Source: a virus (lineage: Duplodnaviria; Caudoviricetes). Taken from it: 64,000 bases of DNA. A program made the translations under genes and the position numbers. Where the stretch lies: IMG/VR virus record IMGVR_UViG_3300048670_001567, positions 1-64,000 of that record. The stretch is one strand, 5' to 3'. Of this stretch, positions 13,129 to 63,997 are shown in pieces; position 1 is the first letter of the stretch; every line of letters begins with the position of its first letter. The notes beneath the pieces are model-generated. The model was not told where the DNA came from, made no database searches, and saw nothing but the letters and a program-made list of their open reading frames with translations.

Positions 13129-13155
13129 TTTTATATCCCCTGACAAGTATTTAAC

Positions 13156-13176
13156 AAAAAACCCGCCGAAGCGGGT
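13156..13176 (-). terminator. Intrinsic terminator with UUCG loop
   Basis: ACCCGC-TTCG-GCGGGT followed by a T-tract. Confidence 0.8.
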
Positions 13177-13183
13177 CTGATGT

Positions 13184-15990: not shown

Positions 15991-16016
15991 AGTGAATACC
16001 CCCTGTTATTAAGTCA

Positions 16017-21809: not shown

Positions 21810-23927
21810 TTACCTAGTAATTTTTCCTACAATATAGCACAATGGCTCTAGCACTGCGCGATAGACTCGTCCCAGTGTATCTCTACGCCGGCCCTTCATT
21901 TCCAGATAGATGTCGCTGGTTCTATGACGAGCGACGTGCTCTAATGCTGTCTTGACCCACTGATTGGTTTGGCCTGTGCCCTTGGCATAAGCCACCAATG
22001 GCAAGAACAATGTGTGATAGCCACGTTGATAAACATCGGCTTTGGGCAAGTTGGCACCATAACGCAACCATATGGCGTTGCGATATGATCCAAAACCGTA
22101 TTCTTCGTTCATCATGGTACATACAATTTTCTTTCCACCTGATACAAACTTCATTGCCTTACCGGCCGCATCTGTACAAGAATCGGCAATCTTACCGCCT
22201 GTTTTGACAATACCGTTTTCAATTTGATAACCAGCATCAACGAATGTTTTTGCTGTGTTGTTTGCTGTAGTCTGTGCCAAATTGCTTACATAGGTAGTGG
22301 CTTGATTAGATGCTGATACCGCATTGTTATAAATCTGTTTGCTGGTTTCGTAGACCGCTTTTCTTGTTTGATAAACAGTCACAGCATCTTTGATACACTT
22401 GTTTGTGTCAATGTCAGTGGACAAATCAACTTCGAGTCCAACAAATGCAGCCGCTTCTCCACTTATGCCTAAGCGTAAGTGTCCGTCTTTAAATTGTGAT
22501 TGTGCACCTGCTCCTATTTCAAAGTGATCTTCTCCGTAACTGGCACTTGCGCCAGTAGTTTGGCTAACACCACTGAATGTCACAGTACTTTCACCTTCTA
22601 CTCCTACGCAAGTGCCTATGCTCATACCACCTTCAAGTTGGTATCCGTTCATCCCAACTTCAACTACCACTTCTGCTTTGACACCGGATTCAGCATAAAC
22701 ACATCCGTTGGCACTTTGACCAGCTGGCCCGGCATGCATACTAACCTCTCCACCTGCTTCAGCACGAACCGTACAATTTACGCCTGCTGTTGTGTAAACG
22801 TTGTATCCGTCAAGGCCAGCACCTGCGTGTGTTTCGGCTACAGCTTCTACGCTTACCCAAACACGAACATCACAACCCACATATTCATTGCCAACACTGG
22901 CTTCTGCACTGGCTCCTACTCCTGCACTGGCACCTGCGTGTGCTTGGGCACCAGTACTGGTATAACTGGCTCCGGCTCCTGCTTCGCTACTGGCTTTGGC
23001 TTCTGCGGTAGCTGACGCACTAAAACCTCCAGGCAAGTCTGTTTGAAGTGTCACACTTTCAACATCAAGAACTATCCACTTGGCTTCAACAAATTTTCCT
23101 TCTGCTTCTGCTAGATCGGCGGCAGCTTTATTTTCTGCGGCTTTGGCTGAATTAGCACTGGCCTTGGCGGCTACCAGATCTTTAATAGAGCCTTCGATAA
23201 CCATACAGGCTGCTTTAGGGCCACCGGTGTTTTTGCCCGTGACACGCAGGGCTTTTCTACCAGCAGTGATAAACTTGGTAGAGTTATATTCTTTGGTCTG
23301 TCCGCCAATGTCGGCCAACTGTTGACCGTCTATCCAGGCCTGACCTGAATTATCAACTGCGCCTCTAAAGTTATAGTAGGCATCAACTGGAAAGTCAACC
23401 ATCCAAGTGTTGTCAAAAGTTTCACCTGTGCTGGGCCAAACACCAAAGTCATTCAACAGTTTACAGTAATTGCCCTGAGTAGGCTGACGCACTATGTTGA
23501 CTGGATTGTTTTGCCAGTTTGTAGCGCCATTGGTCATCAGGTTCCAGACACGAACCAACTGTGTGTCATCATCAATAATCATAGCACAACTTCTGTTGGT
23601 GTTGCCTTTGTCACTGGCTTTACAACGGATAGTGTGGTTGCCCGCCGTGACCCATACTATTTCACTGAATATTTTTGTAAAGTCGTTGCTTTCGGGAAGT
23701 TCAAACCCGTCAATGATATATCTGGCATAATTGTCAGCAGTATACTTGAAGTTGTAATAACCATCTGCTGGAAAGTACACCGTGGCGGTGACATCAAAAC
23801 ACCACTTGTTATCTTTGACCCATACTCCATTGTCACGCAACCACTGGGGGTATTTGTTGTCTTGATCACCTGTTCGCCATTGCGCTATGGTGGTATTCTT
23901 TAAATTAAAAATCTGATTTACGGCCAC
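21810..23927 (-). CDS. 705-aa multidomain protein: two PA14-like domains, coiled coil, Ala/Gly beta-rich region, C-terminal GGKKIVCT domain
   Basis: Duplicated FP.D.YYNF...DN units; AEAGA-type repeats. Confidence 0.6.
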   Translation of the reverse strand: MAVNQIFNLKNTTIAQWRTGDQDNKYPQWLRDNGVWVKDNKWCFDVTATVYFPADGYYNFKYTADNYARYIIDGFELPESNDFTKIFSEIVWVTAGNHTIRCKASDKGNTNRSCAMIIDDDTQLVRVWNLMTNGATNWQNNPVNIVRQPTQGNYCKLLNDFGVWPSTGETFDNTWMVDFPVDAYYNFRGAVDNSGQAWIDGQQLADIGGQTKEYNSTKFITAGRKALRVTGKNTGGPKAACMVIEGSIKDLVAAKASANSAKAAENKAAADLAEAEGKFVEAKWIVLDVESVTLQTDLPGGFSASATAEAKASSEAGAGASYTSTGAQAHAGASAGVGASAEASVGNEYVGCDVRVWVSVEAVAETHAGAGLDGYNVYTTAGVNCTVRAEAGGEVSMHAGPAGQSANGCVYAESGVKAEVVVEVGMNGYQLEGGMSIGTCVGVEGESTVTFSGVSQTTGASASYGEDHFEIGAGAQSQFKDGHLRLGISGEAAAFVGLEVDLSTDIDTNKCIKDAVTVYQTRKAVYETSKQIYNNAVSASNQATTYVSNLAQTTANNTAKTFVDAGYQIENGIVKTGGKIADSCTDAAGKAMKFVSGGKKIVCTMMNEEYGFGSYRNAIWLRYGANLPKADVYQRGYHTLFLPLVAYAKGTGQTNQWVKTALEHVARHRTSDIYLEMKGRRRDTLGRVYRAVLEPLCYIVGKITR

Positions 23928-23928
23928 G

Positions 23929-24246
23929 TTATTTCTCCTCTGCTTTTGATTTGCTTAACGCACTTCCTGTTAGTAGCGCACCAAACGCCAGATGAAATAC
24001 TCCTGCCCCTTGAAGTGTAAAGGGGGCATAGTCTTTTGCTACTGCCTGTAATATCTGTGTTTGTATTCCAGGGTCAAATGTTCTTAGATTATTGATAATG
24101 AAATCCTGAAGGCCGTGTCCTTTAAATGCTGTAATAGCCACGGGCATGATCACAAAGTCTACCAGACATATAATAGCATAGATCACAGCCATTATGGTTT
24201 TCCAGCCTTCGTCACGTTGCATCCAAATAAAGAACTGTTTTAGCAT
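23929..24246 (-). CDS. Small membrane protein (holin-like)
   Basis: W...MAVIYAIICLVDFVIMP and TLQGAGVFHLAFGALL hydrophobic segments. Confidence 0.55.
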   Translation of the reverse strand: MLKQFFIWMQRDEGWKTIMAVIYAIICLVDFVIMPVAITAFKGHGLQDFIINNLRTFDPGIQTQILQAVAKDYAPFTLQGAGVFHLAFGALLTGSALSKSKAEEK

Positions 24247-26564
24247 TATAGTTTACAGCTTTCGCAGTCCTCTTCGTTGTCGAAATCAATTGGTTCCAGA
24301 TGATCTGGAGGTGTTTCTGAGTCCATTTTACTGCCTTGTTTATTAATCAAACTGTAATAGAAGGTCTTCAACCCCCAGGCACAGGCCTGCATCAAATTTT
24401 TGGCAATCAGTGTGGTTGGCACCTTGCGGTCTGCGAAATGCGCAGGATTGTAAAAAGTATTGGTGCTGATGCTCTGATCCACATACGCTGCCAACACAGC
24501 AGCCGTCTTGAGATAGCCCACACAATCCCGCTGATCCCACATCAATTGGTACCGGTTCCGGAGTTTCTGATATTCTGGAACCACCTGTATAAAACTGCCG
24601 GCCTTGCTTTCTTTGACAGTGATCAGACTCATGGGCATTTCAATACCATTGGTTGAGTTAATGACCACACTGCTGGACTCCACTGGAGCAATGGCCATCA
24701 GGGTGGCATTGCGAACACCGTGACTACGCATATCACTGCGCAACTGTTCCCAGTCCAGTTCTGGAGTAAAGTCTGCCAGCTCATTGACTGCATGAGCTCT
24801 CAATTCCCAGGGGAATATGCCCTGTCCATATCTGGTTCGATCACTGTCCCGACACTTGCCACGTTCTTTGGCTAGCTCAACAGTGGCCTCGGTCAGATAG
24901 AAAGACTGATGCTCCATCCAGGTCTTGACCTCCTGTAGAGCATCACTTTCGCCGTAACGTAGGCTCCGTTTGGCATGCCAGTAGGCCAAGTTTGTCACGC
25001 CAATGCCCAGGGGTTGAATCTCCTCATTGCTGAGTCGACTCTGAACACTTAGGAAATCCTGGTAGTCCAAAATATTACACAGACTGCGTTGGAGTATACG
25101 GCAAGCTCTACGCATATCTTCAGGATTACGGAATGCTCCCCAATTTATACTGCCTAGGGTACAGAGAGCAATTCTGCCGGTTTCGTCATCCAACCGCCGA
25201 AACGGTTTGGTGGGCAGTAAAATCTCGCAACACAGATTGCTTTGATAGATGGTATGATACTCAGGATCAAATGGGCCCTGGTTCATGACATTGTCGATGA
25301 ACACCAGATAGATGCGACCAGTGTCTGTGCGTTCTTTAAGTATGCCACCCTTGAATACTTCTTCAGCACTCATGGTTTTTTTGCGTAGGTCACGGCGCCG
25401 TTCATACTTGACATAGAGTTCTTCAAATTTCTGCGTGTTGGTATAAAATGCCTCATACAGATCCGGAACTTCATTGGGGTCAAAGAAGGTAATGTTTTCT
25501 TTGTTCCTGAACCGACGCCAAAAGAATGCACTCAACACCACGCCATAGTCCATGTGTCTGACACGAGTTTCTTCTGTGCCTTGATTATTTTTCAGCACAA
25601 TCAGATCATCAAACTGCAGATGCCAGATGGGATAAAACACTGTGGCACTGGCATTTCGGATTCCGCCCTGACTGCAACTGCGCAGATCAGCAAACCATTT
25701 CTTCAGGAAGGGCAGCATGCCAGTGTGCATGATTTCTCCACCCCTAATGGGACTGCCCAGAGGTCTGAGTCTGCCAATTTCTAAACCAATACCAGCGCGT
25801 TTGCTGGCATACTTGGCCATCATCTCTCCGCTGGCAAAAATACTATCGAGATCGTCATCGCTACGAATGAGCACACAACTGCTGAATTGCTTGGTGGGAG
25901 TACCAAGGCCAGCAAGAACAGGAGTGGCCAGAGTAAACAAACCGTCACTAGATGCATTATAATATTCTTTGATAAATTTTAGTCGTTGACCAGGGTTTTC
26001 TGCATGGAACACAGTGGCAGCAGCCACCATATAGCGAATCTGTGGTGTTTCATAAATGGCCTTGGTTGCTCGATTGCGTACCAGATATTTCTCAATCAAT
26101 TGTTCGATTGCGGCATAGCTGTATTCTTCGTCTTTGGCATGATCCAGTAGATCATTCATGCGATTCCACTCGTCTTCAGTGTACCATTCCAGAAGTTCTG
26201 AAGTATACAAACCAACTGACACATTGCGTTTGACGATTTCATACAGATGTGGTGGCTCGTAGCTGCCGTAGACGTCTTTGCGCAACATGCTCAGGCGCTG
26301 CTTGCCTGCCACATACTGATAATTTGTATTTCCAATGTCGGGGTTTTGTTCAACGTCGATCAAATCCACAATGGCACGCAGAGTAATTTCATCAATCTCT
26401 CGGGTGGTGATGCCATCATAAAAATGAGGCTGTGCTTTGATTTCTATCATACTCTGACTTACGTCAGCAATTCCTGCACACACTTTGGAAATCTGAGCCT
26501 GCCATTTGTCGATGGCCAATGGCACGCTGGCACCGCCACGTTTGATGACTTGAATATTACTCAA
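24246..26564 (-). CDS. nrdA: Ribonucleotide reductase class Ia alpha subunit with ATP cone
   Basis: VIKRGG, TPVL, SSC, SNLCCEI, APVESSS, C-terminal CESC. Confidence 0.97.
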   Translation of the reverse strand: MSNIQVIKRGGASVPLAIDKWQAQISKVCAGIADVSQSMIEIKAQPHFYDGITTREIDEITLRAIVDLIDVEQNPDIGNTNYQYVAGKQRLSMLRKDVYGSYEPPHLYEIVKRNVSVGLYTSELLEWYTEDEWNRMNDLLDHAKDEEYSYAAIEQLIEKYLVRNRATKAIYETPQIRYMVAAATVFHAENPGQRLKFIKEYYNASSDGLFTLATPVLAGLGTPTKQFSSCVLIRSDDDLDSIFASGEMMAKYASKRAGIGLEIGRLRPLGSPIRGGEIMHTGMLPFLKKWFADLRSCSQGGIRNASATVFYPIWHLQFDDLIVLKNNQGTEETRVRHMDYGVVLSAFFWRRFRNKENITFFDPNEVPDLYEAFYTNTQKFEELYVKYERRRDLRKKTMSAEEVFKGGILKERTDTGRIYLVFIDNVMNQGPFDPEYHTIYQSNLCCEILLPTKPFRRLDDETGRIALCTLGSINWGAFRNPEDMRRACRILQRSLCNILDYQDFLSVQSRLSNEEIQPLGIGVTNLAYWHAKRSLRYGESDALQEVKTWMEHQSFYLTEATVELAKERGKCRDSDRTRYGQGIFPWELRAHAVNELADFTPELDWEQLRSDMRSHGVRNATLMAIAPVESSSVVINSTNGIEMPMSLITVKESKAGSFIQVVPEYQKLRNRYQLMWDQRDCVGYLKTAAVLAAYVDQSISTNTFYNPAHFADRKVPTTLIAKNLMQACAWGLKTFYYSLINKQGSKMDSETPPDHLEPIDFDNEEDCESCKL

Positions 26565-26668
26565 TTCGAAAACCTCTTTTAAAAATTTATTTACTGATCG
26601 GATTCAGACACTAATCTGTTTAGTTTACATTAAACTTCAGATGATTGCAATGATGTGGCAATAATTTA

Positions 26669-28237
26669 TCAAATAAATGATCTGATTGCATAGGCAAATT
26701 CTGCATCCCCAGTATCTGAAGACACTGAATAATTCAAAACCACAGAGTTGGAAACGGTATTGCCTAAAAATTGAAAGGCCACACCTGTATCAGCAGATTC
26801 TGAATAATCGTCAGTGAAAACAACATTCTGACCGCTATTGTGACTTATGTGCATGACCCCAACTCTAACAATGCCGTTTCTTTTGATGGAATAATCAATG
26901 GTTGCTAATGACAAGGTGGACAATATTGTTGAACCAATATTTGCAGTTGTGTTACTGCCCAGTGTTATTTTGTGTCCTGGTGTGGTTTGGTCTGAGCCAA
27001 TGGTGGTGGCCTGAGAGACCGGCGAAACGTTGCTGGACAGATTTAATGCTATTAGTCCTGTGGTCTGTTGCTGCGCCAGTGTCCTGGCAAACAATTCACT
27101 GATGCTGTAATTGTCAGAAGTGCTCCAGCGTAGGACAGGATAAGTTGCTGTGCCTGTATTCATCTGACTGCCGTTGGTCAATCCCACAGACTTATAATAG
27201 TTGAATGCACTGGTGATGGAACTGGAGTCTTGGGAATATATGGCCTCGGTGGCTATCTGATCAAATTCACATGACATAATACGTATGCCCCGGGGGCTGG
27301 TGATGTTGGCATTGGCCAGGAATCCCTGGTATAAGGTGTTGAACTTGCTGGTATTGATGGTTACAGACGACACATCTCCTGATGCCCGGATCCCATATAT
27401 GACATTGGAAAATTCACAGGAATTAAAAATCACTGAATGCACTGGTGTAACTGTATCCAATATACAGACCGCCGCTGTCTCAGTGTCTGGGGTCACAGGA
27501 TTTATGACAGCTCCCTGAAATCCCACACGATCAAAACTGATATTGTGACAACTCTCCAGCTGGGCCACGTGATTGTTCCTGGTGGTTTCCAATGTGAGAT
27601 CTCTCAGAGCAATCTGAAAAGGTGCTGCAGATGTCAACAGATCTATGGACGTTCCCGAGTTTCCTCGACTGTCTTTGAAACTGATCACCGGATCATTACC
27701 ATAGATCAATCGAATGGTGGTGGAAGATATGCCGTCACCTTGCAAACAAGCATAGGGTGGTAATTTAATTCCTGCAGAAATAGTCCATACCCCAGCAGGG
27801 ATTCTTAAAACTCTGCGCACACTGGCTTGATTAAAGTAGTCTCTGGGAAATACCTGATCTATGGCTCTTTGCAAGGTTACTGTGTAGTCATCGTTGGCAA
27901 CGTCTTGAGCACGAATAAAATCACGAAAATTAACAAAATCATCAAATTTATTCTGCAGGGTTCGTCTGACTGGAGAATTACTACTCAGCCCAGTCTGACT
28001 GACATACCCAGATTCACGACCCTGGTAGGTGTAAGATTCTATGGCCGCCAACACATCACTGTTGTTGGTTAAGATTTCAGTGTTACCGATACTGGGCGCA
28101 CCTTCTTGCAAGGTGCCGTTGCCGATCCAGAGTCTGCGCTGATCCACACTCCAGCCAAATTCTCCACTGGCCAATTGTGGCAGGTCCTCTTGAAGACCTC
28201 TGCGCACCTGTATCCTGCTGATTTGGATTACCGCCAT
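26669..28237 (-). CDS. Tail fibre/spike with pectate-lyase-like beta-helix
   Basis: N-terminal RIQVRRG..LPQLASGEFG..D..RLWIG; D.T..LQRAID, IPAG, L.GDG. Confidence 0.75.
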   Translation of the reverse strand: MAVIQISRIQVRRGLQEDLPQLASGEFGWSVDQRRLWIGNGTLQEGAPSIGNTEILTNNSDVLAAIESYTYQGRESGYVSQTGLSSNSPVRRTLQNKFDDFVNFRDFIRAQDVANDDYTVTLQRAIDQVFPRDYFNQASVRRVLRIPAGVWTISAGIKLPPYACLQGDGISSTTIRLIYGNDPVISFKDSRGNSGTSIDLLTSAAPFQIALRDLTLETTRNNHVAQLESCHNISFDRVGFQGAVINPVTPDTETAAVCILDTVTPVHSVIFNSCEFSNVIYGIRASGDVSSVTINTSKFNTLYQGFLANANITSPRGIRIMSCEFDQIATEAIYSQDSSSITSAFNYYKSVGLTNGSQMNTGTATYPVLRWSTSDNYSISELFARTLAQQQTTGLIALNLSSNVSPVSQATTIGSDQTTPGHKITLGSNTTANIGSTILSTLSLATIDYSIKRNGIVRVGVMHISHNSGQNVVFTDDYSESADTGVAFQFLGNTVSNSVVLNYSVSSDTGDAEFAYAIRSFI

Positions 28238-28265
28238 TGCTCTGACTCCCAACTAAGTTTAATAT

Positions 28266-32392: not shown

Positions 32393-32659
32393 CTATTTAT
32401 TTAAGATACTGTTACAGACAAATCCAAGGAATGCCGCCAGAATAGCCCCGCCAATTGATACAAATATGCTTATGGTCTGTTTATTCTGGTCGTTGAGCTT
32501 GCCAGTGACCGCGTCTTTGATGTCAACAATATGCGACTCAAGTTTATCCATACGTGACTCAAGATTTTCTAGTTTGGTTTCCAAGTTCTTGTACCTTTCA
32601 GCACAAAGTTCAACGTGGGCTTCTAGATTTTGTTTTTCAATCTCAGTAGTGGTTGACAT
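32393..32659 (-). CDS. Coiled-coil protein with C-terminal TM helix
   Basis: IEKQNLEAHVELCAERY; paralog of 60668..60919. Confidence 0.7.
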   Translation of the reverse strand: MSTTTEIEKQNLEAHVELCAERYKNLETKLENLESRMDKLESHIVDIKDAVTGKLNDQNKQTISIFVSIGGAILAAFLGFVCNSILNK

Positions 32660-55400: not shown

Positions 55401-56153
55401 TCAGACAGTCAAATTTTGATCAGATATTTCAAAAATCCAGCGTTCAAAAATATTATCGTCAGCGTAATCTAGAGTTATCCAGCAATAGCCACCGGCTCCC
55501 CAGAAAATGCCATAACTGTTCTTGGCCAGAAACAATTTTTTATCCAGGTCATAACCCACCAGTACCATGGCATGATCTCCCTCTGACTCGGTGTTGGCGT
55601 CGGGCAAAGAAATTGTTGCATTGTTGGCTCTTAGATTTTCAAATCCTGGGTATATACTCATGCCTATGACCACTGGCAGATTCTGATTGAGTGCATCCAA
55701 GGTGTCTGCGTTATCATTCAGTCTTTGATAATTGGTAATGGATCTGGTGTCAGCTTCCCGATAGCAGTCATCAGTGGGTCGCACATTGACCAGATCACGC
55801 TGATAGGGCCACAACTCTTCTTTACAAACACCATATTGCTGCAGGCTTTTTAATGCACTTCTCAGTGTGGTTATTCCTGCATCTGTTGTTTCTGATCCTT
55901 CCAGTAGTCTGGCATTGTAATAAACAAACAATCTGCTCAGTTCAACAAACTGATCGGGATACCTTTGTTTTACCTGCAATTCATAACTGTTGGTGATGGC
56001 ATTGCCCGAGCAACTGCCCAACAGATGCTGATCTTCTATCAGAGAATCCCAGGATCTCAGATCTACTGATTTTCTGAGATCTTTACCCGTTTTCTGATAG
56101 ATGTGATCACGACCATCAGGCCGACTCTGACCGATGGGAAAATCATTCAGCAT
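55401..56153 (-). CDS. Papain-like cysteine peptidase (C1A)
   Basis: Q...GSC, SRLFVYY, HAMVLVGY, KNSYG..WG..GY. Confidence 0.9.
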   Translation of the reverse strand: MLNDFPIGQSRPDGRDHIYQKTGKDLRKSVDLRSWDSLIEDQHLLGSCSGNAITNSYELQVKQRYPDQFVELSRLFVYYNARLLEGSETTDAGITTLRSALKSLQQYGVCKEELWPYQRDLVNVRPTDDCYREADTRSITNYQRLNDNADTLDALNQNLPVVIGMSIYPGFENLRANNATISLPDANTESEGDHAMVLVGYDLDKKLFLAKNSYGIFWGAGGYCWITLDYADDNIFERWIFEISDQNLTV

Positions 56154-56709
56154 TGTTGTTCCTGGTGCCACGTATTTCTTCTATCTTTCGAAGCAGAGAC
56201 GGCAGTATACCTGTAGGCTCGGGCTCTGCCGCTCGGGCTTCTTTCATATAATCCATCAACTCCTGCACTGTGGGTGTGGGGGTAACTGTTGACGTTGTAT
56301 CCGCTACTTCAACGTTGACAGTTTCCCTGACGTTGGCATCCATAGGTTCAGTAAATTCAATACTTTCCACAGCAACATCAGATTCAGGCTCTACAACAAC
56401 AATATCTGGAGAAATGTCAGTATCAGATTTTACTGGTTCAGTGTTTGGTGGTTTTAACTCCTTTGTTGATGATTGACTCAGAAACTCCAGAAGTTTCTGA
56501 GCTCGAGCAATGATGTCATTTTCGTTAGGGTAGGGTGGAATTGGTGGATATGCCAGACGGACACGGCGTGTGCGCCAGAGTTCGTTGGATTCCACCAGCC
56601 ACTGATTGTGCATTTCTGCTCGACGATCTGTGTGCTCGTTAATCACCAGTTCACGAGCCATGCGTAATATTTCCAAACTGTTAGAATCGAACTCAGGCAT
56701 CATGCTCAC
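56143..56709 (-). CDS. Hypothetical protein, paralog of 60244..60675
   Basis: EILRMARE...W......W......YPPIPPYP.E.DIIARA. Confidence 0.75.
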   Translation of the reverse strand: MSMMPEFDSNSLEILRMARELVINEHTDRRAEMHNQWLVESNELWRTRRVRLAYPPIPPYPNENDIIARAQKLLEFLSQSSTKELKPPNTEPVKSDTDISPDIVVVEPESDVAVESIEFTEPMDANVRETVNVEVADTTSTVTPTPTVQELMDYMKEARAAEPEPTGILPSLLRKIEEIRGTRNNNAE

Positions 56710-57419
56710 CCAAAGATTGGATTGTCAAATCTGGTGGGCCTCAGAGATATAATTCCTCGGGCCAGGACTTCTGATAGGCCCAGATCAGGAGGATTTCCTG
56801 ATATCAGATATTCTGACGCTCTGCGTAGACCGTCACTGTCCAGGGACCAATTTTTGGCCATTCGGGCCTGAGTCTGGTCAACAATTGCTCCAGCGATTGC
56901 TGTCAATAAATCCATTACAGACTGCTGTGGCCATTGATTGGGAGCCAGATCATACAGGGCTTTAGATAAAGAGCCGATTTGATTTCTCAATTCAGTTTGT
57001 GCCATGGATACATCTTTATTTTCCACCAGACTATCAATCACTGCAACCAGACGATTGGTCAGATTGGAAAATTCTGTGCCTATTCCTTGAGCATCTGCCG
57101 ACAAAAAAAACGGACTAACCAAGGGCATGAGTTTCGTCAGATTCTGATCGATTAATTTTCTAGCATCAACAGTAGCAGCAGCATCGCCAGAAATTTTGTT
57201 GACAATATAATTTCTCAGGTATGTCAAATAGTTGCTAAAATAATCCTTGGACATCATTCTCAGGGCCACTGCAGCAGGATTATATTCTATATTGCTGAAG
57301 GCGCCAGCCATTATGCGTTGTCCCTGAGTCATGGTGTTGCCACACTGCATTGCTGCAGTTGCTATTGCGGGGTGATCGTAATGTTCTTCTACAATATTGT
57401 GTGTAATTTTTTTGTACAT
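56706..57419 (-). CDS. Helical protein, paralog of 60925..61629
   Basis: MYKKITHNIVEEH; P.QWP; ARGII. Confidence 0.75.
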   Translation of the reverse strand: MYKKITHNIVEEHYDHPAIATAAMQCGNTMTQGQRIMAGAFSNIEYNPAAVALRMMSKDYFSNYLTYLRNYIVNKISGDAAATVDARKLIDQNLTKLMPLVSPFFLSADAQGIGTEFSNLTNRLVAVIDSLVENKDVSMAQTELRNQIGSLSKALYDLAPNQWPQQSVMDLLTAIAGAIVDQTQARMAKNWSLDSDGLRRASEYLISGNPPDLGLSEVLARGIISLRPTRFDNPIFG

Positions 57420-57436
57420 TTTAAATTCTCCTTGTG

Positions 57437-58048
57437 TTAAGTTTGACTCATGTAAGTTACTGTGCCCACCAGAATGGTTCCAACTTTGACATCATCTATG
57501 ACAAGATTGGTCAAACTCTGGCCAGGGTTCTGCTGATACCACATGGTGGCCGAAGTGCTGGCAGATATAACAGTGCCGCCCAGGTAATTGACATTTTTAT
57601 CAAAGTCTTTGTAGTAGGAAATCAGAACCGATCCCACTGCACCAGTGTCGGTGATGCTGGTGAATGGCAGTCCGGTCAGTACTATTGGCTTATCAGAACC
57701 GCCTGTGATGGCAGTGATTTTAATGTCAAAAGTGCAAGTAACCAATTGACCAATTTTTGTGTATTTGGCATTACGTGTGCTGATGGTGATGCTGCCGGTG
57801 GGGCTGGGCACCAATGCAGGTGTCCAGGTGCCAAAGGCATAACTGGGACCACCACCGCCACCATTGGCACTGATGGTACCATCGGGGGTGACTGATATGT
57901 TGGCACCAATCTTGACCACACCCAGGGTAGTGGTGGTGGCTATTTCAGCATCCAGCACCACAGGTGCTATGGCCTGCGTGGGTGGCAAGGGAGTCTGTTT
58001 CAATCCCTGTCCTGCTCGGGTCACTGCTGGTGGTCTGGTGTATGCCAT
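57437..58048 (-). CDS. Short fibre-like protein
   Basis: ATTTTLGVVKIGANISV.DG fibre repeat; GTWTP...YTKIG.LV...GLPF fibre-tip motif. Confidence 0.65.
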   Translation of the reverse strand: MAYTRPPAVTRAGQGLKQTPLPPTQAIAPVVLDAEIATTTTLGVVKIGANISVTPDGTISANGGGGGPSYAFGTWTPALVPSPTGSITISTRNAKYTKIGQLVTCTFDIKITAITGGSDKPIVLTGLPFTSITDTGAVGSVLISYYKDFDKNVNYLGGTVISASTSATMWYQQNPGQSLTNLVIDDVKVGTILVGTVTYMSQT

Positions 58049-58057
58049 GATTTTTCC

Positions 58058-58669
58058 TTAGACTGCGTTCCAGTTGGTGCCACGGAAGATCAGTGTCACA
58101 CTGCCATCAGTGTCGGCAATGATGGCATAACTGCTGGTGTTTTCAATGGTTTCAGCACCATTGGGCACAATGGTGATGTTGCCAGTGTTGGTGACTTCAC
58201 TCTTGATGATATAGGTGTTGCCGGCTCCGCCCACTGGCAAATTGATGGTCACCGCAGCGTTGGCTCTGACACCAATATAATAGTCGGATGCCAGGGCAGT
58301 GTAGGGACTGTCGGCCTGACTGATCAACCGGGTGGCCACATTGGGGCTGGCTGATGCTGCTATGGTCAGACTGGGCGCAACACCGGTGATGGTGATGTTA
58401 TCGCCAGCTGTCAGCGAGGTGATGACTCGATTGCCGTTGTCCAACACCTGCCCACCACTGATGTTACCCAGAGCAACTATGTCATTGATGACATTTATGG
58501 TGTTGCCCACAAACAGATCAAAAGTGGATGAAATATTACCAAATGTCACATTGGCAGTGGTGGAAATATCTTGTGGTATATCAACAACACCAGTGGTGAC
58601 ACTGATGTTGGCTCCTACTTCTACTACGCCATACCGGGTTTTTGATGCCAAGGGTGAATTATATGCCAT
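58058..58669 (-). CDS. Short fibre-like protein
   Basis: MAYNSP..YGVVEVGANISV; C-terminal domain shared with 59768..60247. Confidence 0.65.
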   Translation of the reverse strand: MAYNSPLASKTRYGVVEVGANISVTTGVVDIPQDISTTANVTFGNISSTFDLFVGNTINVINDIVALGNISGGQVLDNGNRVITSLTAGDNITITGVAPSLTIAASASPNVATRLISQADSPYTALASDYYIGVRANAAVTINLPVGGAGNTYIIKSEVTNTGNITIVPNGAETIENTSSYAIIADTDGSVTLIFRGTNWNAV

Positions 58670-58672
58670 TTT

Positions 58673-59200
58673 TTATTTTCCTTTTAATTTAATTTCTAAA
58701 ACAACTTTCTGTGTGTTGGTGCCGTCCTCAGTTTCAGCGGTGGCGCCAGTCGCAGTTTCGGTGTCTGTTTCGGTATCATCGTCACCGCCGATGATTTCTT
58801 CATAGTTTTTCATATTCAAAACATCACCGTCTTCACTGAGATCAATTAAATTTTCAGTAATTTCATGTAATACCACATCAGTGCCAGCATCTTCCTTGGC
58901 ATATTCCAGCAATCTGATCATCAGGGGCACTGTTACCTTGATGGCATTGGATTCATCAGCCAGGACTGGATTGGAGTTACCATTCATGATACCAGCATGT
59001 TGTTGCCAGCCTGCGCACCAGTAGCGTGGTTTGACTCGGGCTGACCATTTGTTACAGTAGTAGGATCTCAGATCAAAATGCTGACAATTGCTGCAAAATT
59101 GGTCGGCAGGAGCATTGCCGTAGACTGCAGGCTGGTAACTGTCGGGCAGTGACTCTGGTATGGGTTGTCCGTTGGGGTAAACTCGGGGTCTGACGTACAT
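58673..59200 (-). CDS. Protein with a 4-Cys HiPIP-like motif and acidic tail
   Basis: CSNCQHF...C...V....WCAGW. Confidence 0.5.
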   Translation of the reverse strand: MYVRPRVYPNGQPIPESLPDSYQPAVYGNAPADQFCSNCQHFDLRSYYCNKWSARVKPRYWCAGWQQHAGIMNGNSNPVLADESNAIKVTVPLMIRLLEYAKEDAGTDVVLHEITENLIDLSEDGDVLNMKNYEEIIGGDDDTETDTETATGATAETEDGTNTQKVVLEIKLKGK

Positions 59201-59211
59201 GATGGTTTCCT

Positions 59212-59766
59212 TTATAATTGTATGATGGTGCATCTTGCGCTGGTGGTCACTGGTCTGACCGGAGCCACTTGGGCAGGGGTACTCAATATTCGCATGGCTG
59301 TGTCGGTGCTCTGCCAGGCCACTTGCGTATTGTCTCCTGCATTAAGTGCCAGAGTAAAGTTCCAGCTGGCCACCAAAACCCCCAATCCCCCAGTAATAGA
59401 AATTTGAGAGTTGGTGTCTGGATAGTTGACACCGTTGCGCACCAACCAGATGTCTGCCAAATCGGTGCCGGCGTCGGTTTTGTCCATCTGCAATACGAAT
59501 TGAAAATTATAGTTGGCAGTTTTACTCACAGTGACCTGTGTGCCAGCCACCAGAGTGATGCCCACGTTAATGGCTGCGTTGTTGAAGCTGACAATATTAA
59601 CAGCACCGGCCACGGGGTTGGTCTGTGTGACCGTGCTGTAAAAATATGCCTGATTCAACAGCGCCACAGGTACCACACTGACTACTCCATCGCTGGAGGT
59701 CAGGTTATTGCCCGGACGCATTACACCGTATTTGACATTTGATGTGATGGGCGCGTTATAGGACAT
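59212..59766 (-). CDS. C1q/BclA-CTD-like beta-sandwich protein
   Basis: AYF..., GITL, V....YNFQF.LQ, W...NG, L.AGD pattern. Confidence 0.55.
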   Translation of the reverse strand: MSYNAPITSNVKYGVMRPGNNLTSSDGVVSVVPVALLNQAYFYSTVTQTNPVAGAVNIVSFNNAAINVGITLVAGTQVTVSKTANYNFQFVLQMDKTDAGTDLADIWLVRNGVNYPDTNSQISITGGLGVLVASWNFTLALNAGDNTQVAWQSTDTAMRILSTPAQVAPVRPVTTSARCTIIQL

Positions 59767-59767
59767 T

Positions 59768-60247
59768 TTAGGTCACGTTCCATTCAGTTCCATTAAACAC
59801 CACGGTGATGCTGCCATAGTCCAGGTCGATGACATAATTGGCCTGACCGTCAATGGTGGTACCAGCAGGCACCACGTTGATGTTGTTGGTGGTGGCGTCA
59901 CCGTCAATGTCCTTGATCACATAAACTTTACCAGTCACACTGACCGGCAAGTTCAGTGTCACGGGACCTGCCACATCCACACCCAGAAAGTATTGAGCAC
60001 TGTTGGCAGTGAAGGGTGTAGTAGTAATTATTGTCACTGGCACGTTTGCAAGTGTGCCGGCAGGCCCTGGTGGCCCTGGTGGCCCAGGTGGCCCAGGTGG
60101 TCCGACACCACCACCAATGTTGATGATGTCATTGCCCAGCCCACCAAAATTACTGGTGGCAATCTGCGGGACTGCGGTGGGCACAACTGGGCGTCGGAAT
60201 ATTGCAGGACGTCTGCGAGCAGGCAGAAACAATGATAATGGTATCAT
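59768..60247 (-). CDS. Collagen-like (GPP)n protein with C-terminal beta domain
   Basis: GPPGPPGPPGPPGPAG. Confidence 0.75.
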   Translation of the reverse strand: MIPLSLFLPARRRPAIFRRPVVPTAVPQIATSNFGGLGNDIINIGGGVGPPGPPGPPGPPGPAGTLANVPVTIITTTPFTANSAQYFLGVDVAGPVTLNLPVSVTGKVYVIKDIDGDATTNNINVVPAGTTIDGQANYVIDLDYGSITVVFNGTEWNVT

Positions 60248-60675
60248 GATTTACTCCAAGTGGCTCGAAGCCGATTGAATCGGTCCATGATGCCGTCGGT
60301 GGCTGCGGTGACCTCTGTGAATAAGTTGTTGTCCACAGTTGCAGCTGGCTCAGTGTTGGCTTCAGTATTGACGGGTTCAACTACAATTGCAGGTTGAACT
60401 TGTGTTGTTGTGGTGTCAACTGAAGGGTCACTGACTAATAGTGTCTTGCTTAACTCAATGGCGCGGGCCAATATGTCAGTCTCTGAAGGATATAGTGGTG
60501 GTATGGGATAGGGCAGCAATGCACCTTTGGTGCGCCAGGCCTCATCAGCATCTCGCAACCACTGCAGATGATCTTCAGCACGTTGAGCGATAAACTCGCT
60601 GACCAATTGCTCTCGGGCCATCTTTAAAATTTCCACATTTTTTGATAGGGTTTCTGAAGTCATGATGTTATCCAA
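60244..60675 (-). CDS. Hypothetical protein, paralog of 56143..56709
   Basis: EILKMARE...YPIPPLYPSETDILARA. Confidence 0.75.
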   Translation of the reverse strand: MDNIMTSETLSKNVEILKMAREQLVSEFIAQRAEDHLQWLRDADEAWRTKGALLPYPIPPLYPSETDILARAIELSKTLLVSDPSVDTTTTQVQPAIVVEPVNTEANTEPAATVDNNLFTEVTAATDGIMDRFNRLRATWSKS

Positions 60676-60919
60676 TACGATCTAAAAAAATCATGGTCAA
60701 TGACACAGTCAATGACATCACGGCAGTGGCCACACCAATGGCCTTGATGATTTGTTCGCGGCCCTGTGACCTCATTCGAGTGAGTTCGTCAATCTCTGCT
60801 TCAGCCTGGGCCAGTCTGCGCTCAATGGCTCGATAACGATGACCACATATTTCCACATGTGCTTCCAAATTGTCTTTTTCAATGTCATCTGACTTTTTTG
60901 TGGTGTGGTGAACTATCAT
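60668..60919 (-). CDS. Coiled-coil protein with C-terminal TM helix, paralog of 32393..32659
   Basis: IEKDNLEAHVEICGHRY. Confidence 0.7.
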   Translation of the reverse strand: MIVHHTTKKSDDIEKDNLEAHVEICGHRYRAIERRLAQAEAEIDELTRMRSQGREQIIKAIGVATAVMSLTVSLTMIFLDRIG

Positions 60920-60924
60920 TTAAA

Positions 60925-61629
60925 TTATCCTATGACGAACGACAGAGGATACTGTGATATTATCCCTCTGCTAATTAGATCAGCAATGCTGGTATATCCC
61001 CGATTGGTGTGATTGGGAATGCCACTGACTGCCACTTTGAGGATATTATCCAGGGCAATACTGTCAGCAGCAAAATCTTTATCGTATCTGGCCTGGAAGT
61101 CTTCCAGCCAGAATCTGGTCAGAGTGACCATCATTTCCGACATCAGGTCTCGAGGCCACTGACTGGGATTGAGTTCGTTAAGGTACAGGGCCAACTCATC
61201 AGCCTGTTTGCTCCAGATGGTTTCAAATACTTCGACATCACGTCGATTCTTTATGGCATCAACCACCTTGGTGCCGTTGACGGCTATGGCAGTCAACAAG
61301 TTGCCCACCCGGGTACCAGCAGCTATACCATAGTAGGGCACAAAAAAATTACCAATTTCTGCTGCAGATTTTTTTAGATTTTTCTCCACAGTGGGCGTAC
61401 TGTCCAGATTACCAAAGTCACTGACACTGAAGTTGATCATGCCCAGACTGAATCTGGTCCAGAGTGTTCGGCTATCCATTCTGAATACCAGTGTGCGTTC
61501 GTTGATCACCAGAGCAGGCAGTTCGCCTGTGACGGGAGTCACCACCGATGCTGCTTTGATTGCACGAGATAGACCCGCAACATCATCGAAATGTTCTTCA
61601 ACAATATCGTGTGTGATTTTTTTGTACAT
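60925..61629 (-). CDS. Helical-bundle protein
   Basis: MYKKITHDIVEEH; R.LW, PYYG, ADELA..L..LNP..W. Confidence 0.75.
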   Translation of the reverse strand: MYKKITHDIVEEHFDDVAGLSRAIKAASVVTPVTGELPALVINERTLVFRMDSRTLWTRFSLGMINFSVSDFGNLDSTPTVEKNLKKSAAEIGNFFVPYYGIAAGTRVGNLLTAIAVNGTKVVDAIKNRRDVEVFETIWSKQADELALYLNELNPSQWPRDLMSEMMVTLTRFWLEDFQARYDKDFAADSIALDNILKVAVSGIPNHTNRGYTSIADLISRGIISQYPLSFVIG

Positions 61630-61640
61630 GTGTTGTTCTC

Positions 61641-61826
61641 TTAGTAAATTGCAGTGGGTGAAAAAATCTGGTTGATGCCAGCAGCCGCACCAGTATTGAT
61701 GACACTCTGATTGGCCAGCTGACTTTGAAAAGCATTAACGCCATAGTTTGCGTAGTATGATTGATAGGGTGGATACAAGGGTTGCATATATGGACTTCTG
61801 TAGTACGGATAGTAATAACCAAACAT
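61641..61826 (-). CDS. Tyr/Pro-rich 61-aa peptide ending in the NAFQSQ..Q.VINTG motif
   Basis: AGGAG RBS; motif shared with 62062..62619 and 62631..63191. Confidence 0.8.
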   Translation of the reverse strand: MFGYYYPYYRSPYMQPLYPPYQSYYANYGVNAFQSQLANQSVINTGAAAGINQIFSPTAIY

Positions 61827-61846
61827 TTTGTTAATCTCCTATTAAA

Positions 61847-61871
61847 ATAGCGGGCTCTAAGAGCCCGCTAT
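61847..61871 (-). terminator. Perfect 11-bp hairpin (terminator or attenuator)
   Basis: ATAGCGGGCTC-3 nt-GAGCCCGCTAT with a short T-tract on the minus strand. Confidence 0.7.
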
Positions 61872-61879
61872 CACTACTT

Positions 61880-62041
61880 TTAGTACGGATAACCGTAGAA
61901 GCCGCCCCAGTATGGATATGCAAAACCTCCATAGTAGGGATATCCTATGCCTGCTGCCAGGTATGGTCTCATACCAAACCCACCGCAGCCGCCATATGGA
62001 TAACAACCGCCAAAGCCACCGTAACCCCATGGTCTAAACAT
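61880..62041 (-). CDS. Gly/Tyr-rich 53-aa peptide (MFRPWGYGGFGGCYPYGGCGG...YGYPY; not in the ORF track)
   Basis: AAGGAGG RBS; fills the gap exactly. Confidence 0.8.
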   Translation of the reverse strand: MFRPWGYGGFGGCYPYGGCGGFGMRPYLAAGIGYPYYGGFAYPYWGGFYGYPY

Positions 62042-62061
62042 AATGCTTTTCCTCCTTTGGG

Positions 62062-62619
62062 TTAAGTCCCAATACGTGTTGGATTATTGTTCTGTGTGGT
62101 GTTGGCAATGTTGCCAGTATTAACCACACGTTGACCGCTAATCTGACTACCAAATGCATTGATTAAACTATTGGTGTTGGCACTTTGTACTGCACTGTTC
62201 AACCCACCGTACGCCAGACCCAGACCACCATAGGCAACACCCACGCCAGTCAAGGCAGTGTTGGTGTTGATCAATGCTGTGTTCAGGTTCTGTGTGTTCA
62301 GGAAGTTGACCAAACCACGAGTGGCTTCGCCTTGTTCCATGACCAAACGCTGGGTTGACATGGCCGAGGCGCCCACTGCAGCACCACCGCGCGATTCGGC
62401 CAACATGGCTTCCACAGTGCCTTTGTTAACTGCCTGCTTGAGATCAGCAAATGCTGATGTATTACGCAAGGCCACCTGCATGCCACGATTGTTGATGTCG
62501 TTGGTCTGTGCAACACTTAGTTTATATCCTTCAAACACACCATCAGAAACCTTGGTCTTGGTAGCCTCGATTTCTCTTGATAGTGCGTAGAAGGGATCCA
62601 TTGTAAATTCTCCAGCCAT
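62062..62619 (-). CDS. Asn/Gly/Ala-rich protein, tandem paralog B
   Basis: MDPFYALSREIEATKTKVSD; LNTQNLNTALINTNTAL; AYGGLGLAYGGL. Confidence 0.85.
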   Translation of the reverse strand: MAGEFTMDPFYALSREIEATKTKVSDGVFEGYKLSVAQTNDINNRGMQVALRNTSAFADLKQAVNKGTVEAMLAESRGGAAVGASAMSTQRLVMEQGEATRGLVNFLNTQNLNTALINTNTALTGVGVAYGGLGLAYGGLNSAVQSANTNSLINAFGSQISGQRVVNTGNIANTTQNNNPTRIGT

Positions 62620-62630
62620 TTTATATCTCC

Positions 62631-63191
62631 TTAAAGGATGTTAGTGGGGTTCGCTGTCTGAGTTGTACCAGTCATTGTCCCAGTATTGATAACACCTTGG
62701 CTTGCTAGTTGGCTTTGAAAAGCATTGATCGCACTGTTGGTGTTAGCACTCTGATAGGCAGTGTTCAAACCACCATAAGCCAGACCCAAACCACCGTAAG
62801 CCAGACCACCACCAACCAATGCTGTGTTGGTATTGATCAGTGCTGTGTTTAGGTTCTGTGTGTTCAGTGCGTTGACCAAACCACGTGTGCGCTCGGCTTC
62901 TTCCATGATCAGACGTTGTGTTGCCATGGCAGTTGCGCCAATCTGTGCGTCTGTGCGACTTGCTGCCAACATGGTTTGCAGTGTACCGTCTGCTACGGCT
63001 TGCTTGAGATCAGCCAATGCTGTGGCATCATGCAGAGCAACCTGCATGGCACGATTGTTGATGTCGTTGGTTTGAGCTACTTGTAGTTTGTAGTTCTCAA
63101 AAATACTGTCTGAAACTTTGGTCTTGGTTGCTTCTATTTCTCTGCTTAGAGCATAGAAAGGATCCATTACATAACTTGTTCCGTCGGCCAT
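62631..63191 (-). CDS. Asn/Gly/Ala-rich protein, tandem paralog A
   Basis: Same blocks as paralog B; strong AGGAG RBS. Confidence 0.85.
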   Translation of the reverse strand: MADGTSYVMDPFYALSREIEATKTKVSDSIFENYKLQVAQTNDINNRAMQVALHDATALADLKQAVADGTLQTMLAASRTDAQIGATAMATQRLIMEEAERTRGLVNALNTQNLNTALINTNTALVGGGLAYGGLGLAYGGLNTAYQSANTNSAINAFQSQLASQGVINTGTMTGTTQTANPTNIL

Positions 63192-63292
63192 TTTATATAT
63201 CTCCTAATTAAGATTATGAGCATTTTTTCATACTCATAGATACTTAGAAGATATATGGTGGCGATTTGCTCGACTTGAGTCTGACCTGTACT

Positions 63293-63997
63293 TTAATTGA
63301 TAGTACTTTTACTTCGCTGATTAAACAGCACCAACTGAGTACGATTCTTGACACCGTATTTTTTAAATATGGCACTCATGTGCAATTTTACAGTGCTTTC
63401 GGATATCCGGAGCAGTCTGGCGATGACCTTGTTGCTGGCGCCCCGTTCAGACACCAACTTCAAAATTTGATCCTGGCGGGGAGTCAGTATGATATCACCG
63501 TCCCGTATCAGATCTCGAGAAGTTTTCTTGCGAGGGTGCATCAACTGTTGGATCTTTTCCGGAATGTGTGGATGGCCTGCTTCCAGTTCATCCAGAGCCA
63601 GCTTTTTCTCCAGTGGAGTAAACTCATCACCACCGGGATAGATACCCAATATGCCAGTACTCAGGGCATCTCTGATTAGGTGTGTGTCAGTGCTCATATC
63701 TGCTCGAACTGCCACCCAAGTGGCCCTGCGTTGAGTTCGACCCTGTTCTGTCCTGTACACAGTGCATTTTATCAGAGTCAGCAATGTCTGCAATATTTCA
63801 TAAACTTCACTGATTTGATTTTTAGCGAAATGTGACAGGTCCACCACAATCAAATCAATACAGACGTTGGCGTCACTGATCAAAGGAAATAGTTCCTGAA
63901 TGGTGTCAATTTTACTATAGCATCTGCCAGAACTGGCGGCTGTTCGTTGCATGTCCAGACAGTGTTCTTGTGCATTTACATAAATTATATTAGGCAT
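63293..63997 (-). CDS. LuxR/NarL-family regulator (degenerate receiver domain + HTH)
   Basis: LTPRQ.QIL.LV..GASNK.IA..L.ISESTVKLHM..IFKK.GV.NRTQ. Confidence 0.9.
   Translation of the reverse strand: MPNIIYVNAQEHCLDMQRTAASSGRCYSKIDTIQELFPLISDANVCIDLIVVDLSHFAKNQISEVYEILQTLLTLIKCTVYRTEQGRTQRRATWVAVRADMSTDTHLIRDALSTGILGIYPGGDEFTPLEKKLALDELEAGHPHIPEKIQQLMHPRKKTSRDLIRDGDIILTPRQDQILKLVSERGASNKVIARLLRISESTVKLHMSAIFKKYGVKNRTQLVLFNQRSKSTIN

Follow-up and report, generated by a model that had tools for sequence, protein, structure and literature searches.

Background

The described systems closest to the locus reported here are the tailspike assembly of phage CBA120 (TSP1-4) and the gp10-gp11-gp12 complex of phage T4 (7REJ/7RFO/7RFV and 5IV5; PMC8825819). 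The locus is a cassette of sixteen genes in the first 64 kb (64,000 nucleotides; the window) of the 94.5-kb viral record IMGVR_UViG_3300048670_001567. It appears to share with these complexes the joint encoding of several short trimeric fibres, the presence of common N-terminal anchors and an XD1-like domain, which suggests an arrangement of fibres on fibres. It differs from them in that the XD1-like domain is C-terminal on proteins of 130-200 amino acids (aa) and that enzymatic spike bodies are absent. Moreover, the cassette adds rod, helical-bundle, tether and Tyr-rich protein families, a cysteine protease and a private regulator, and it is unlinked to baseplate genes.

In architecture only, the fibres of the cassette are also like the head fibre of phi29, the capsid spike gp52 of Pa223 and the fibritin whiskers of T4, all of which are trimeric and combine a short N-terminal attachment with a shaft and a C-terminal knob. 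Accessory capsid fibres and spikes are proposed to keep the phage in contact with its host for longer (bioRxiv 10.1101/2025.06.11.659172). These capsid-attached structures are single proteins, however, whereas the cassette is a regulated 16-gene kit. A third system, the nap of the Bacillus exosporium (BclA on BxpB/ExsFA, with late coat genes under GerE), is analogous in its collagen-like repeats, its C1q/TNF-like knob, its common terminal address motifs, the link between proteolysis and assembly, and its GerE-type helix-turn-helix (HTH). Yet apart from insignificant ExsF/BxpB matches the cassette has no sequence family in common with the exosporium and no Cys-rich proteins of the ExsY/CotY type; it is phage-encoded, not found in bacteria, and its products are predicted to be cytoplasmic.

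Large T4-like phages abound in natural waters, and most of their accessory genes are unexplained. The cassette is notable in that it is widespread, evolves as a unit, has its own transcription factor and promoter, and carries short end tags on unrelated proteins. We tentatively read it, with somewhat less than an even chance of being right, as a structural module that large T4-like phages carry as an accessory, apart from their core genes for head and tail, and that makes a fibrous appendage of several proteins, probably attached to the virion. If the products are extra virion fibres, they would bear on host range and on adsorption to surfaces and particles; if they are something else, they would represent a new type of virus-made structure.

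Organization of the cassette

The sixteen genes are co-oriented on the minus strand and run head to tail from position 63997 down to 55401, as follows.

63293-63997, minus strand: regulator; atypical receiver-like N-terminal domain and GerE/LuxR HTH (NarL/VraR/VpsT-like)
62631-63191, minus strand: A1 rod, 186 aa; predicted continuous helix of ~150 residues and Gly/Asn/Thr-rich C-terminal tag
62062-62619, minus strand: A2 rod; tandem paralog of A1
61880-62041, minus strand: GY micro-protein, 53 aa; 32% Gly, 23% Tyr; conserved RGYLAAGIGYPY-type core motif
61641-61826, minus strand: YP micro-protein, 61 aa; Tyr/Pro-rich, C-terminal tag as in A1 and A2
60925-61629, minus strand: H1; predicted soluble seven-helix bundle with the invariant N-terminal tag MYKKITHxIVEEHF
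60668-60919, minus strand: TMcc; predicted tail-anchored coiled coil with a transmembrane (TM) segment at residues 61-79
60244-60675, minus strand: N1; tether-like, with a helical domain, an acidic linker and an amphipathic basic C-terminal end
59768-60247, minus strand: F1 fibre; basic N-terminal end, GPP collagen stretch, XD1-like C-terminal beta-sandwich
59212-59766, minus strand: F2 fibre; fibre N-anchor and C1q/TNF-like knob
58673-59233, minus strand: Cys4; Cys4 domain (C-x2-C...C...C) fused to an acidic helical domain
58058-58669, minus strand: F3 fibre; N-anchor as in F2, XD1-like C-terminal domain as in F1
57437-58048, minus strand: F4 fibre; short, with a T4-type G-V-V-K-I-G repeat and a distinct C-terminal knob; its PHROG matches are families of unknown function
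56706-57419, minus strand: H2; H1 paralog that bears the N-terminal tag of H1
56143-56709, minus strand: N2; paralog of N1
55401-56171, minus strand: protease; papain-family (C1) cysteine protease, catalytic set intact

From 61629 to 55401 neighbouring genes are separated by gaps of 1-17 nt or overlap by 4-29 nt. This layout bears out the initial annotation, made from the sequence of the window, which had noticed about 15 tightly packed co-oriented genes behind a LuxR-HTH regulator, and the Cys-motif protein, the short fibres and the papain-type protease that it listed are likewise all present. All-against-all BLASTP of the proteins of the record also recovered its two duplicated helical pairs, with 26% identity between H1 and H2 (E 1e-24) and 40% over ~105 aa between N1 and N2. 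Its pair of Asn/Gly/Ala-rich proteins with strong ribosome-binding sites stood as well, although at 73% identity (BLASTP) A1 and A2 are not near-identical as had been claimed.

Scans of all members against Pfam and PHROG matched the regulator and the protease, gave weak tail matches for the fibres and returned nothing otherwise. Judged by such comparisons, at least four protein families of the cassette (rod, bundle, tether and Tyr-rich) are without a described relative. A 19-residue hydropathy scan located a single clear C-terminal TM segment, in TMcc, in agreement with the membrane coiled coil of the initial annotation; the remaining cassette proteins lack any clear hydrophobic stretch of the TM or signal type. 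Since clear hydrophobic N-terminal segments are lacking, assembly of the products is probably cytoplasmic, as it is for virions.

Conservation and distribution

Searches of IMG/VR with back-translated A1 and H1 yielded 48 loci. By tblastn of all cassette proteins against these, about 40 keep the gene arrangement regulator, A (usually two copies), GY, YP, H, (TMcc), N, fibres, (Cys4), H', (N') and protease, the brackets marking optional members. The genes that flank the cassette in the window are not retained in the relatives. With its order kept and its flanks variable, the cassette thus acts as a single unit amid accessory genes that change.

A more distant group became apparent from a hidden Markov model (HMM) search with the A profile through 1.84 billion representatives. 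The 107 proteins retrieved include a family of long rods of 230-450 aa, the last ~130 residues of which match positions 55-185 of A1. Long rods are encoded in 49 further viral loci, on contigs of up to 400 kb, together with collagen-like or XD1-type fibres and the same protease within 1-2 kb and often with the regulator upstream. After reduction to 37 non-redundant loci, the rod was counted in 35 of them, fibres in 33, the protease in 19, the regulator in 15 and the N family in 7. The TM protein occurs in 13-21 loci. Since many carriers do without the TM protein and the N family, both are to be regarded as accessory to the core. In the complete 258-kb genome of one of these loci (L056) the module comprises just five genes, encoding a rod, a collagen fibre, a protease, a 53-aa protein with 45% Tyr and a Tyr-rich protein of 82 aa whose end carries the tag of the rod. 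The comparison thus points to rod, fibre, protease and Tyr-rich peptides as the evolutionary core.

Among the cultured phages of INPHARED neither rod nor bundle was found. In 185,579 prokaryote species (one genome each) fragments turned up in one Chitinophagales metagenome-assembled genome (MAG) only, on contigs of 10 kb and 3 kb, and are most likely binned phage DNA. Hence the suggestion of a co-inherited structural module with its own regulator, to be sought by synteny in other large phages and in bacteria, is supported: the genes co-occur in ~40 viral contigs, are kept in dozens of large phages and are essentially absent from the prokaryotes surveyed. A literature search, which included the tag sequences, found no description of the cassette, in line with the initial view that no described system of this make-up is known in proteobacterial phages.

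The carriers are, by their gene content, large uncultured T4-like phages. Four of five cassette-bearing relatives tested have a T4 gp23 capsid gene (E 1e-78 to 1e-150), at a distance of 32-237 kb from the cassette, and the UvsW-like helicase of the window shares 51-56% identity with its counterparts in the jumbo phages Phosso and Atu_ph07. A proteobacterial host is plausible, judged by the nearest cultured relatives. No gp23 was found in the 94.5-kb record, the completeness of which is estimated at 27% by CheckV. In such a fragment the missing capsid, portal and sheath genes are uninformative, and their lack in the window, which the initial annotation had noted, carries no weight given that relatives do have gp23.

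Fibre proteins

The four fibres are interrelated in a modular fashion. The C-terminal domains of F1 and F3 are 43% identical and the N-terminal 31 residues of F2 and F3 42% (BLASTP), and the N-anchor common to F2 and F3 is more loosely present in F4. F2, F3 and F4 start with a motif of the type Tyr-Gly-Val-Val-x-Val-Gly, which we take to be a repeat of the T4 gp12/gp34 type. F4 is syntenic in 31 loci, and fibre number and type vary between relatives.

The (GPP)n collagen-like protein predicted at this locus is F1, with four GPP triplets and one GPA. Orthologues have 4-9 triplets; five Gly-X-Y triplets qualify the stretch as collagen-like but are short for a triple helix that is stable by itself. 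F1 has PHROG matches to tail fibre (5e-5) and baseplate (8.5e-4) families. A profile of the F1/F3 C-terminal domain (23 sequences) matched, among PDB entries, the XD1 domain of CBA120 TSP4-N (7RFV/7REJ/7RFO) at 7e-4 to 3e-3, with domain boundaries as given in PMC8825819, and T4 gp10 at 6e-3. In one relative, the orthologous small fibre matches the Pfam family T4_gp9_10_N (PF07880; E 3.4e-5, 20 bits versus a cut-off of 25).

The knob of F2 is homologous to C-terminal domains of longer proteins from small freshwater phages and from Acinetobacter phage phiAC-1, in which the corresponding gene lies immediately downstream of that of the capsid, and some of these homologues are annotated as C1q/cerebellin-like. 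The best PDB matches of the F2 profile are the exosporium proteins ExsF/BxpB, all insignificant (7R1M, E 0.022; 9H3D, 0.11; 8D02, 0.49). The C1q/BclA-CTD-like protein of the initial annotation is therefore retained in part: the C1q-like knob stands, on weak profile matches (E 0.02-0.5) and on the annotations in small phages, but the BclA-type make-up does not, since F2 lacks collagen. Nor does F1 form a BclA-type chain of targeting motif, collagen and C1q/TNF-like end, as it ends in the XD1-like domain. The fibre and knob folds are assigned here on sequence profiles.

Rod proteins, Tyr-rich peptides and terminal tags

The rod is the most conserved member of the cassette (47-87% identity) and has its strongest ribosome-binding sites. 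An AlphaFold2 model of A1 from 25 sequences predicts a single helix from residue 11 to 161, with a mean confidence score (pLDDT) of 71 overall and ~90 over residues 30-110, and a low-confidence Gly/Asn/Thr-rich tail. The rod has no match in Pfam, PHROG or cultured phages, a PDB profile search gave nothing specific and Foldseek against PDB nothing at all; more than 777 homologues exist in metagenomes. In a maximum-likelihood tree the rod copies cluster by genome and not by type, one copy always being on a longer branch, which implies that the tandem copies arose repeatedly or were homogenised by gene conversion. We accordingly rejected the idea that A1 and A2 represent two ancient orthologous clades. 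The N-terminal parts of the long rods contain 11/22-residue amphipathic repeats, and their tail is near-invariant (Gln-Gly-Met-Val-Asn-Phe-Gly-Thr-Met...Asn-Asn-Val-Arg).

Tyr-rich open reading frames (at least 15% Tyr) of the same two classes lie on the coding strand at the same place in 87 of 97 loci scanned. The two Gly/Tyr/Pro micro-peptides noticed initially are thus conserved, real genes. Alignment of 20 YP orthologues gave the tag consensus N-I-I-G-S-A-I-A-N-Q-S-x-x-N-T-G...Q-I-A-T-P-T-V-I-W, and a C-terminal tag of the form Asn-x-x-x-Ser-x-x-x-x-Gln-x-x-x-Asn-Thr-Gly...Gln...Pro-Thr-x-Ile is common to the last ~30 residues of A1, A2 and YP. In the distant group a C-terminal tag is likewise common to the long rods and the Tyr-rich peptides.

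A second tag, MYKKITHxIVEEHF(D)HP, forms the N-terminal end of H1 and H2. Among relatives it also occurs on the Cys4 protein, the orthologues of which often bear it, on the acidic domain of this protein by itself and on proteins of 39-62 aa. A six-frame scan of the 94.5-kb record and of 1.58 Mb of related loci found the tag nowhere outside the cassette. With ~12 residues and an Ile-x-Glu it presumably resembles the capsid-targeting sequence of T4, but its restriction to cassette proteins makes a general head-targeting role of this type unlikely. Together, the C-terminal tag, the N-terminal tag and the fibre N-anchor, each on otherwise unrelated members, form the pattern that would be expected of parts docking onto one assembly, and in this respect the initial idea of multi-component self-assembly fits the data.

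Regulator and putative promoter

The regulator carries the predicted GerE/LuxR HTH (PF00196, E 2.3e-15, 56 bits versus a cut-off of 23.5). A profile of 17 orthologues matches NarL at 1.3e-16 and GerE at 3.9e-9, and aligns with NarL, VraR and VpsT past the HTH into the receiver region. The position of the phospho-acceptor Asp is not conserved in the homologues, many of which have His, Asn or other residues there. The match in the receiver region and the non-conserved Asp point to an atypical response-regulator-like factor of the VpsT/CsgD kind. A quorum-sensing LuxR, that is, a receptor of acyl-homoserine lactones, is ruled out: Pfam detects no autoinducer-binding domain, and LasR, RhlR, CviR and SdiA align over the HTH only.

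Between the regulator and A1 lie, in this order, a promoter-like motif, a hairpin with a 9-bp stem and a strong ribosome-binding site; a further hairpin is found after GY.

63240-63249, minus strand: cassette promoter-like motif TTCTAAGTAT, family consensus T-T/C-TAA-G/C-TAAT
63215-63238, minus strand: 9-bp dyad/hairpin directly after TTCTAAGTAT; putative 5' leader stem-loop or operator
61847-61871, minus strand: GC-rich hairpin after GY; putative attenuator or RNA-stabilising stem

Of all matches to the motif in the 94.5-kb record, TTCTAAGTAT alone lies upstream of a called gene start at a distance of up to 200 nt. In relatives the same motif precedes the rod gene by 25-100 nt and is followed, in most of the 29 matched among 39 scanned, by a hairpin of differing sequence. 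TAA[G/C]TA occurs within 220 nt upstream of the rod in 43 of the 46 loci with a regulator and in 6 of the 27 without one (Fisher p 4e-10), the regulator being counted as present if it lies within 2.5 kb. In seven or eight regulator-less loci the rod gene is instead preceded by the T4 late promoter, TATAAATA, and then a hairpin. The window itself contains TATAAATA seven times where 1.8 occurrences are expected. These data lead us to infer that the cassette would be a late-type function, placed under a private activator in most carriers. The GC-rich hairpin at 61847-61871 would separate an A1-A2-GY block of predicted high expression from the rest.

Further elements were noticed at these sites. 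The occurrences of TATAAATA in the window (4030, 9465, 11822, 30586, 32748, 40257 and 40302) are just upstream of gene starts, and the genes behind them include dnaK (7497-9401), that of a 578-aa protein with a virion-structural PHROG match and a paralog of TMcc at 32393-32659. A conserved GC-rich element with the core GGTAGCGGCGACG-N-ACACCGTTAGTC, which may be a structured RNA, replaces motif and hairpin upstream of the rod in three loci (L004, ~9870-9960; L005, ~9900-9990; L080, ~9760-9850). In the distant regulator-less group a conserved leader of ~120 nt precedes the long rod gene and combines an AAGTAAT-like element with a long hairpin, CCCAGACGACTC...GAATCGTCTGG, and a flanking inverted repeat; it is located at 9840-9990 in L056 and at the same place in L055, L058, L067, L069, L074, L075 and L100.

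Helical bundles, tethers and protease

H1 is modelled by AlphaFold2 as a soluble seven-helix bundle (pLDDT 88.8; predicted template-modelling score, pTM, 0.82). Neither profile search nor Foldseek found a specific PDB relative, and the 32 members of the bundle family have no Pfam family in common. In a wide structural alignment (VIA-align) the best matches, designed barrels and rhodopsins, reached a Z of at most 8.7, which is unspecific for a helical bundle. In BFVD it retrieved homologues from uncultured phages and, beyond these, weak giant-virus look-alikes only: a 209-aa Bodo saltans virus protein annotated as glycosyltransferase (E 1.9e-5, template-modelling scores 0.66/0.73, root-mean-square deviation 2.7 over 194 columns) as well as Tupanvirus and Pithovirus ORFans. 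A search of the ESM Atlas returned unnamed clusters only; one of these, a Bacillota cluster at 0.93, is a tentative lead.

N1 has no Pfam or PHROG match. An alignment of 23 members of its family shows a helical head of ~85 aa, a hypervariable acidic linker rich in Pro, Glu, Val and Thr, and a short amphipathic basic C-terminal end.

The papain-type protease of the initial annotation is well founded (Peptidase_C1, PF00112, E 6.3e-13; PHROG peptidase, 7e-18), and Gln48, Cys54, His200, Asn218 and Trp224 are invariant in 14 homologues. Its best solved relative is PDB 3OIS (E 6.5e-30), a bacterial papain-family protease of the xylellain type, which it resembles over ~200 residues including the full catalytic set. 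Different from the xylellain type, it has a short N-terminal extension only and no clear hydrophobic N-terminal segment. INPHARED contains three weak matches to it, none of them in a cassette; the cysteine protease of the 595-kb phage LR756511 stands alone and is uninformative about the cassette.

Nature of the assembly

How, then, might these parts work together? In the scheme that we favour, the NarL/VpsT-like regulator, the presence of which goes along with that of the motif, would turn on the cassette promoter (T-T/C-TAA-G/C-TAAT and leader hairpin). The long helices of A1 and A2 would form a coiled-coil rod, which the Tyr/Pro peptide and perhaps the Gly/Tyr peptide would join by way of the C-terminal Gln/Asn/Thr/Gly tag that rods and Tyr/Pro peptide have in common. 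The four short trimeric fibres would dock onto this scaffold through their common N-terminal anchor as distal binding units, ending in an XD1-like beta-sandwich (F1, F3) or in a knob, C1q-like or different (F2, F4). H1/H2, N1/N2 and TMcc could act as assembly factors or as a platform, and the protease may mature the parts, possibly by removing tags. The appendage could take the form of extra fibres, of "hair" or of a branched adhesin. How the proteins oligomerise, what the tags bind, which substrates the protease cuts, when the cassette is expressed and where its product is located are in this scheme what we infer from the components.

Fibres on the virion are supported by the fibre-type domains and anchors, the late promoters of some variants, the strictly viral distribution, the predicted cytoplasmic assembly, and the conservation and expression signals of the rod. 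Then again, several points weigh against them. The location on the particle is wholly conjectural. All matches of the fibre domains are weak (E 1e-3 to 1e-5) and below curated cut-offs, and T4_gp9_10_N has no match in this record even at E 1. Tyr-rich micro-proteins are not known parts of phage fibres, and neither are a tail-anchored membrane protein and tethers with ends of the membrane-targeting kind. A private regulator is unusual for virion genes, the cassette sits among auxiliary genes far from the capsid gene, and ordinary spike and fibre candidates exist elsewhere in the window (26669-28252 and 11914-13194).

Some of these points would be accommodated if the product were no part of the virion but lay on the cytoplasmic side of the inner membrane as a scaffold, matrix or condensate, built from rods and aggregation-prone Gly/Tyr/Asn-rich segments and fixed by TMcc and N1/N2. 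The tail-anchored protein speaks for this, as do the amphipathic repeats of the long rods with their weak match to the apolipoprotein family (3e-5, below cut-off), the low-complexity Tyr/Gly/Arg composition of the peptides, the private regulator and the auxiliary-gene location. So does the design of the N family, a folded head on a long acidic disordered linker with an amphipathic basic C-terminal end (LLxxWLxK, LFTKWGGRG). We take such ends to be like the membrane-targeting helices of MinD and FtsA, a reading made by eye only. Four fibres with knobs of the receptor-binding type and tail-fibre motifs have no obvious intracellular role, however, and the TM protein and the N family, which would have to fix the scaffold, are often missing. 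We regard a membrane scaffold as unlikely.

Lower still in our estimate, and rather improbable, is an ordinary but divergent module of the receptor-binding tail-fibre or baseplate periphery, that is, a branched complex like that of CBA120 or T4 gp10 together with its chaperones. It would account for the XD1-like domains, the T4 gp12-type G-V-V-K-L repeats at the N-terminal ends of the fibres and their common anchor, the PHROG tail matches and the variation of fibre number and type between relatives, as would be expected of host-range genes. The proviso of the initial annotation that the genes might map to ordinary tail or baseplate components in fact applies in part, to the fibres only (PHROG tail; XD1 of T4 gp10 and CBA120 TSP4-N). 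But the fibres are just 159-203 aa long, eleven of the sixteen genes (rods, bundles, tethers, Tyr-rich peptides, TM, Cys4, protease and regulator) are without counterpart in known baseplates, and the cassette is unlinked to the structural block. In addition, relatives have a separate gp9/gp10-like gene elsewhere, and the window contains other spike and tail candidates.

We consider it similarly improbable that the cassette embodies a new viral assembly system, in which terminal tags recruit unrelated proteins onto a coiled-coil scaffold, Tyr-rich mini-proteins cement or cross-link them and the protease matures the whole. Its product would be an exosporium-like coat, nap or matrix around virions or at the host membrane, switched on conditionally by the response-regulator-like factor.

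The initial annotation had gone further and proposed a likeness to spore coat, exosporium or curli, the product being a Tyr-cross-linked, protease-matured shell, either an occlusion-body-like case around virions or a cyst-like coat on the cell. This was prompted by the collagen-like protein and the GerE-type HTH, to which may be added the knob with its insignificant ExsF/BxpB matches, common terminal tags that recall the targeting motif of BclA-family proteins, peptides that by composition are presumably like the coat proteins CotT and CotC, and the SleB-type hydrolase, sugar enzymes and weak CotH-like match just upstream, in this record only. Those matches of the knob aside, no coat, exosporium or curli family was matched by any member, and the cassette contains no transglutaminase, laccase, peroxidase or other cross-linking enzyme and no Cys-rich basal-layer protein. 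As to curli, there is no match to Curlin_rpt in Pfam and no clear hydrophobic N-terminal segment, each protein has a single Gln/Asn/Gly tag, and the regulator is of the same broad class as CsgD, no closer. With collagen (F1) and C1q-like domain (F2) on separate proteins, fibre domains that point to phage tail parts, upstream "spore-like" neighbours that are not syntenic in relatives, a virtual absence from cellular genomes (one MAG among 185,579 species) and nothing that speaks for either occlusion body or cyst-like coat, a shell of this kind is very improbable, and the resemblance is best described as one of composition and functional analogy, not of shared ancestry.

Neighbouring genes

Mixed auxiliary genes recur beside the cassette in relatives, namely GIY-YIG, TauD, UvdE, GH19, SPFH, DD-carboxypeptidase and glycosyltransferases; one distant relative, too, has glycosyltransferases adjoining the cassette. 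In the record studied here the region upstream of the regulator, just past the end of the window (64411-71276), encodes a SleB-type cell-wall hydrolase with a hydrophobic N-terminal end and a sugar-modification block consisting of a GT2 enzyme, a C-methyltransferase, two epimerases/dehydratases and the CotH-like match (E 1.6e-4, below cut-off). A terminator lies at ~64144-64174 between the regulator and these genes, which we rejected as members of the cassette for lack of synteny in relatives.

Elsewhere in the window, the region 14968-17175 encodes a minimal flagellin of 273 aa (Flagellin_N, 3.5e-21; Flagellin_C, 1.5e-12) and a 340-aa FlgK/rod-like protein with matches to FlgK_D1 and Flg_bbr_C, no other flagellar genes being seen. 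Candidates for ordinary receptor-binding and virion genes are located at 21810-28252 and 10078-13194; they include a 705-aa protein with a PA14 domain, a protein of the pectate-lyase fold headed by Mtd_N (26669-28252) and proteins with tail or virion-structural PHROG matches.

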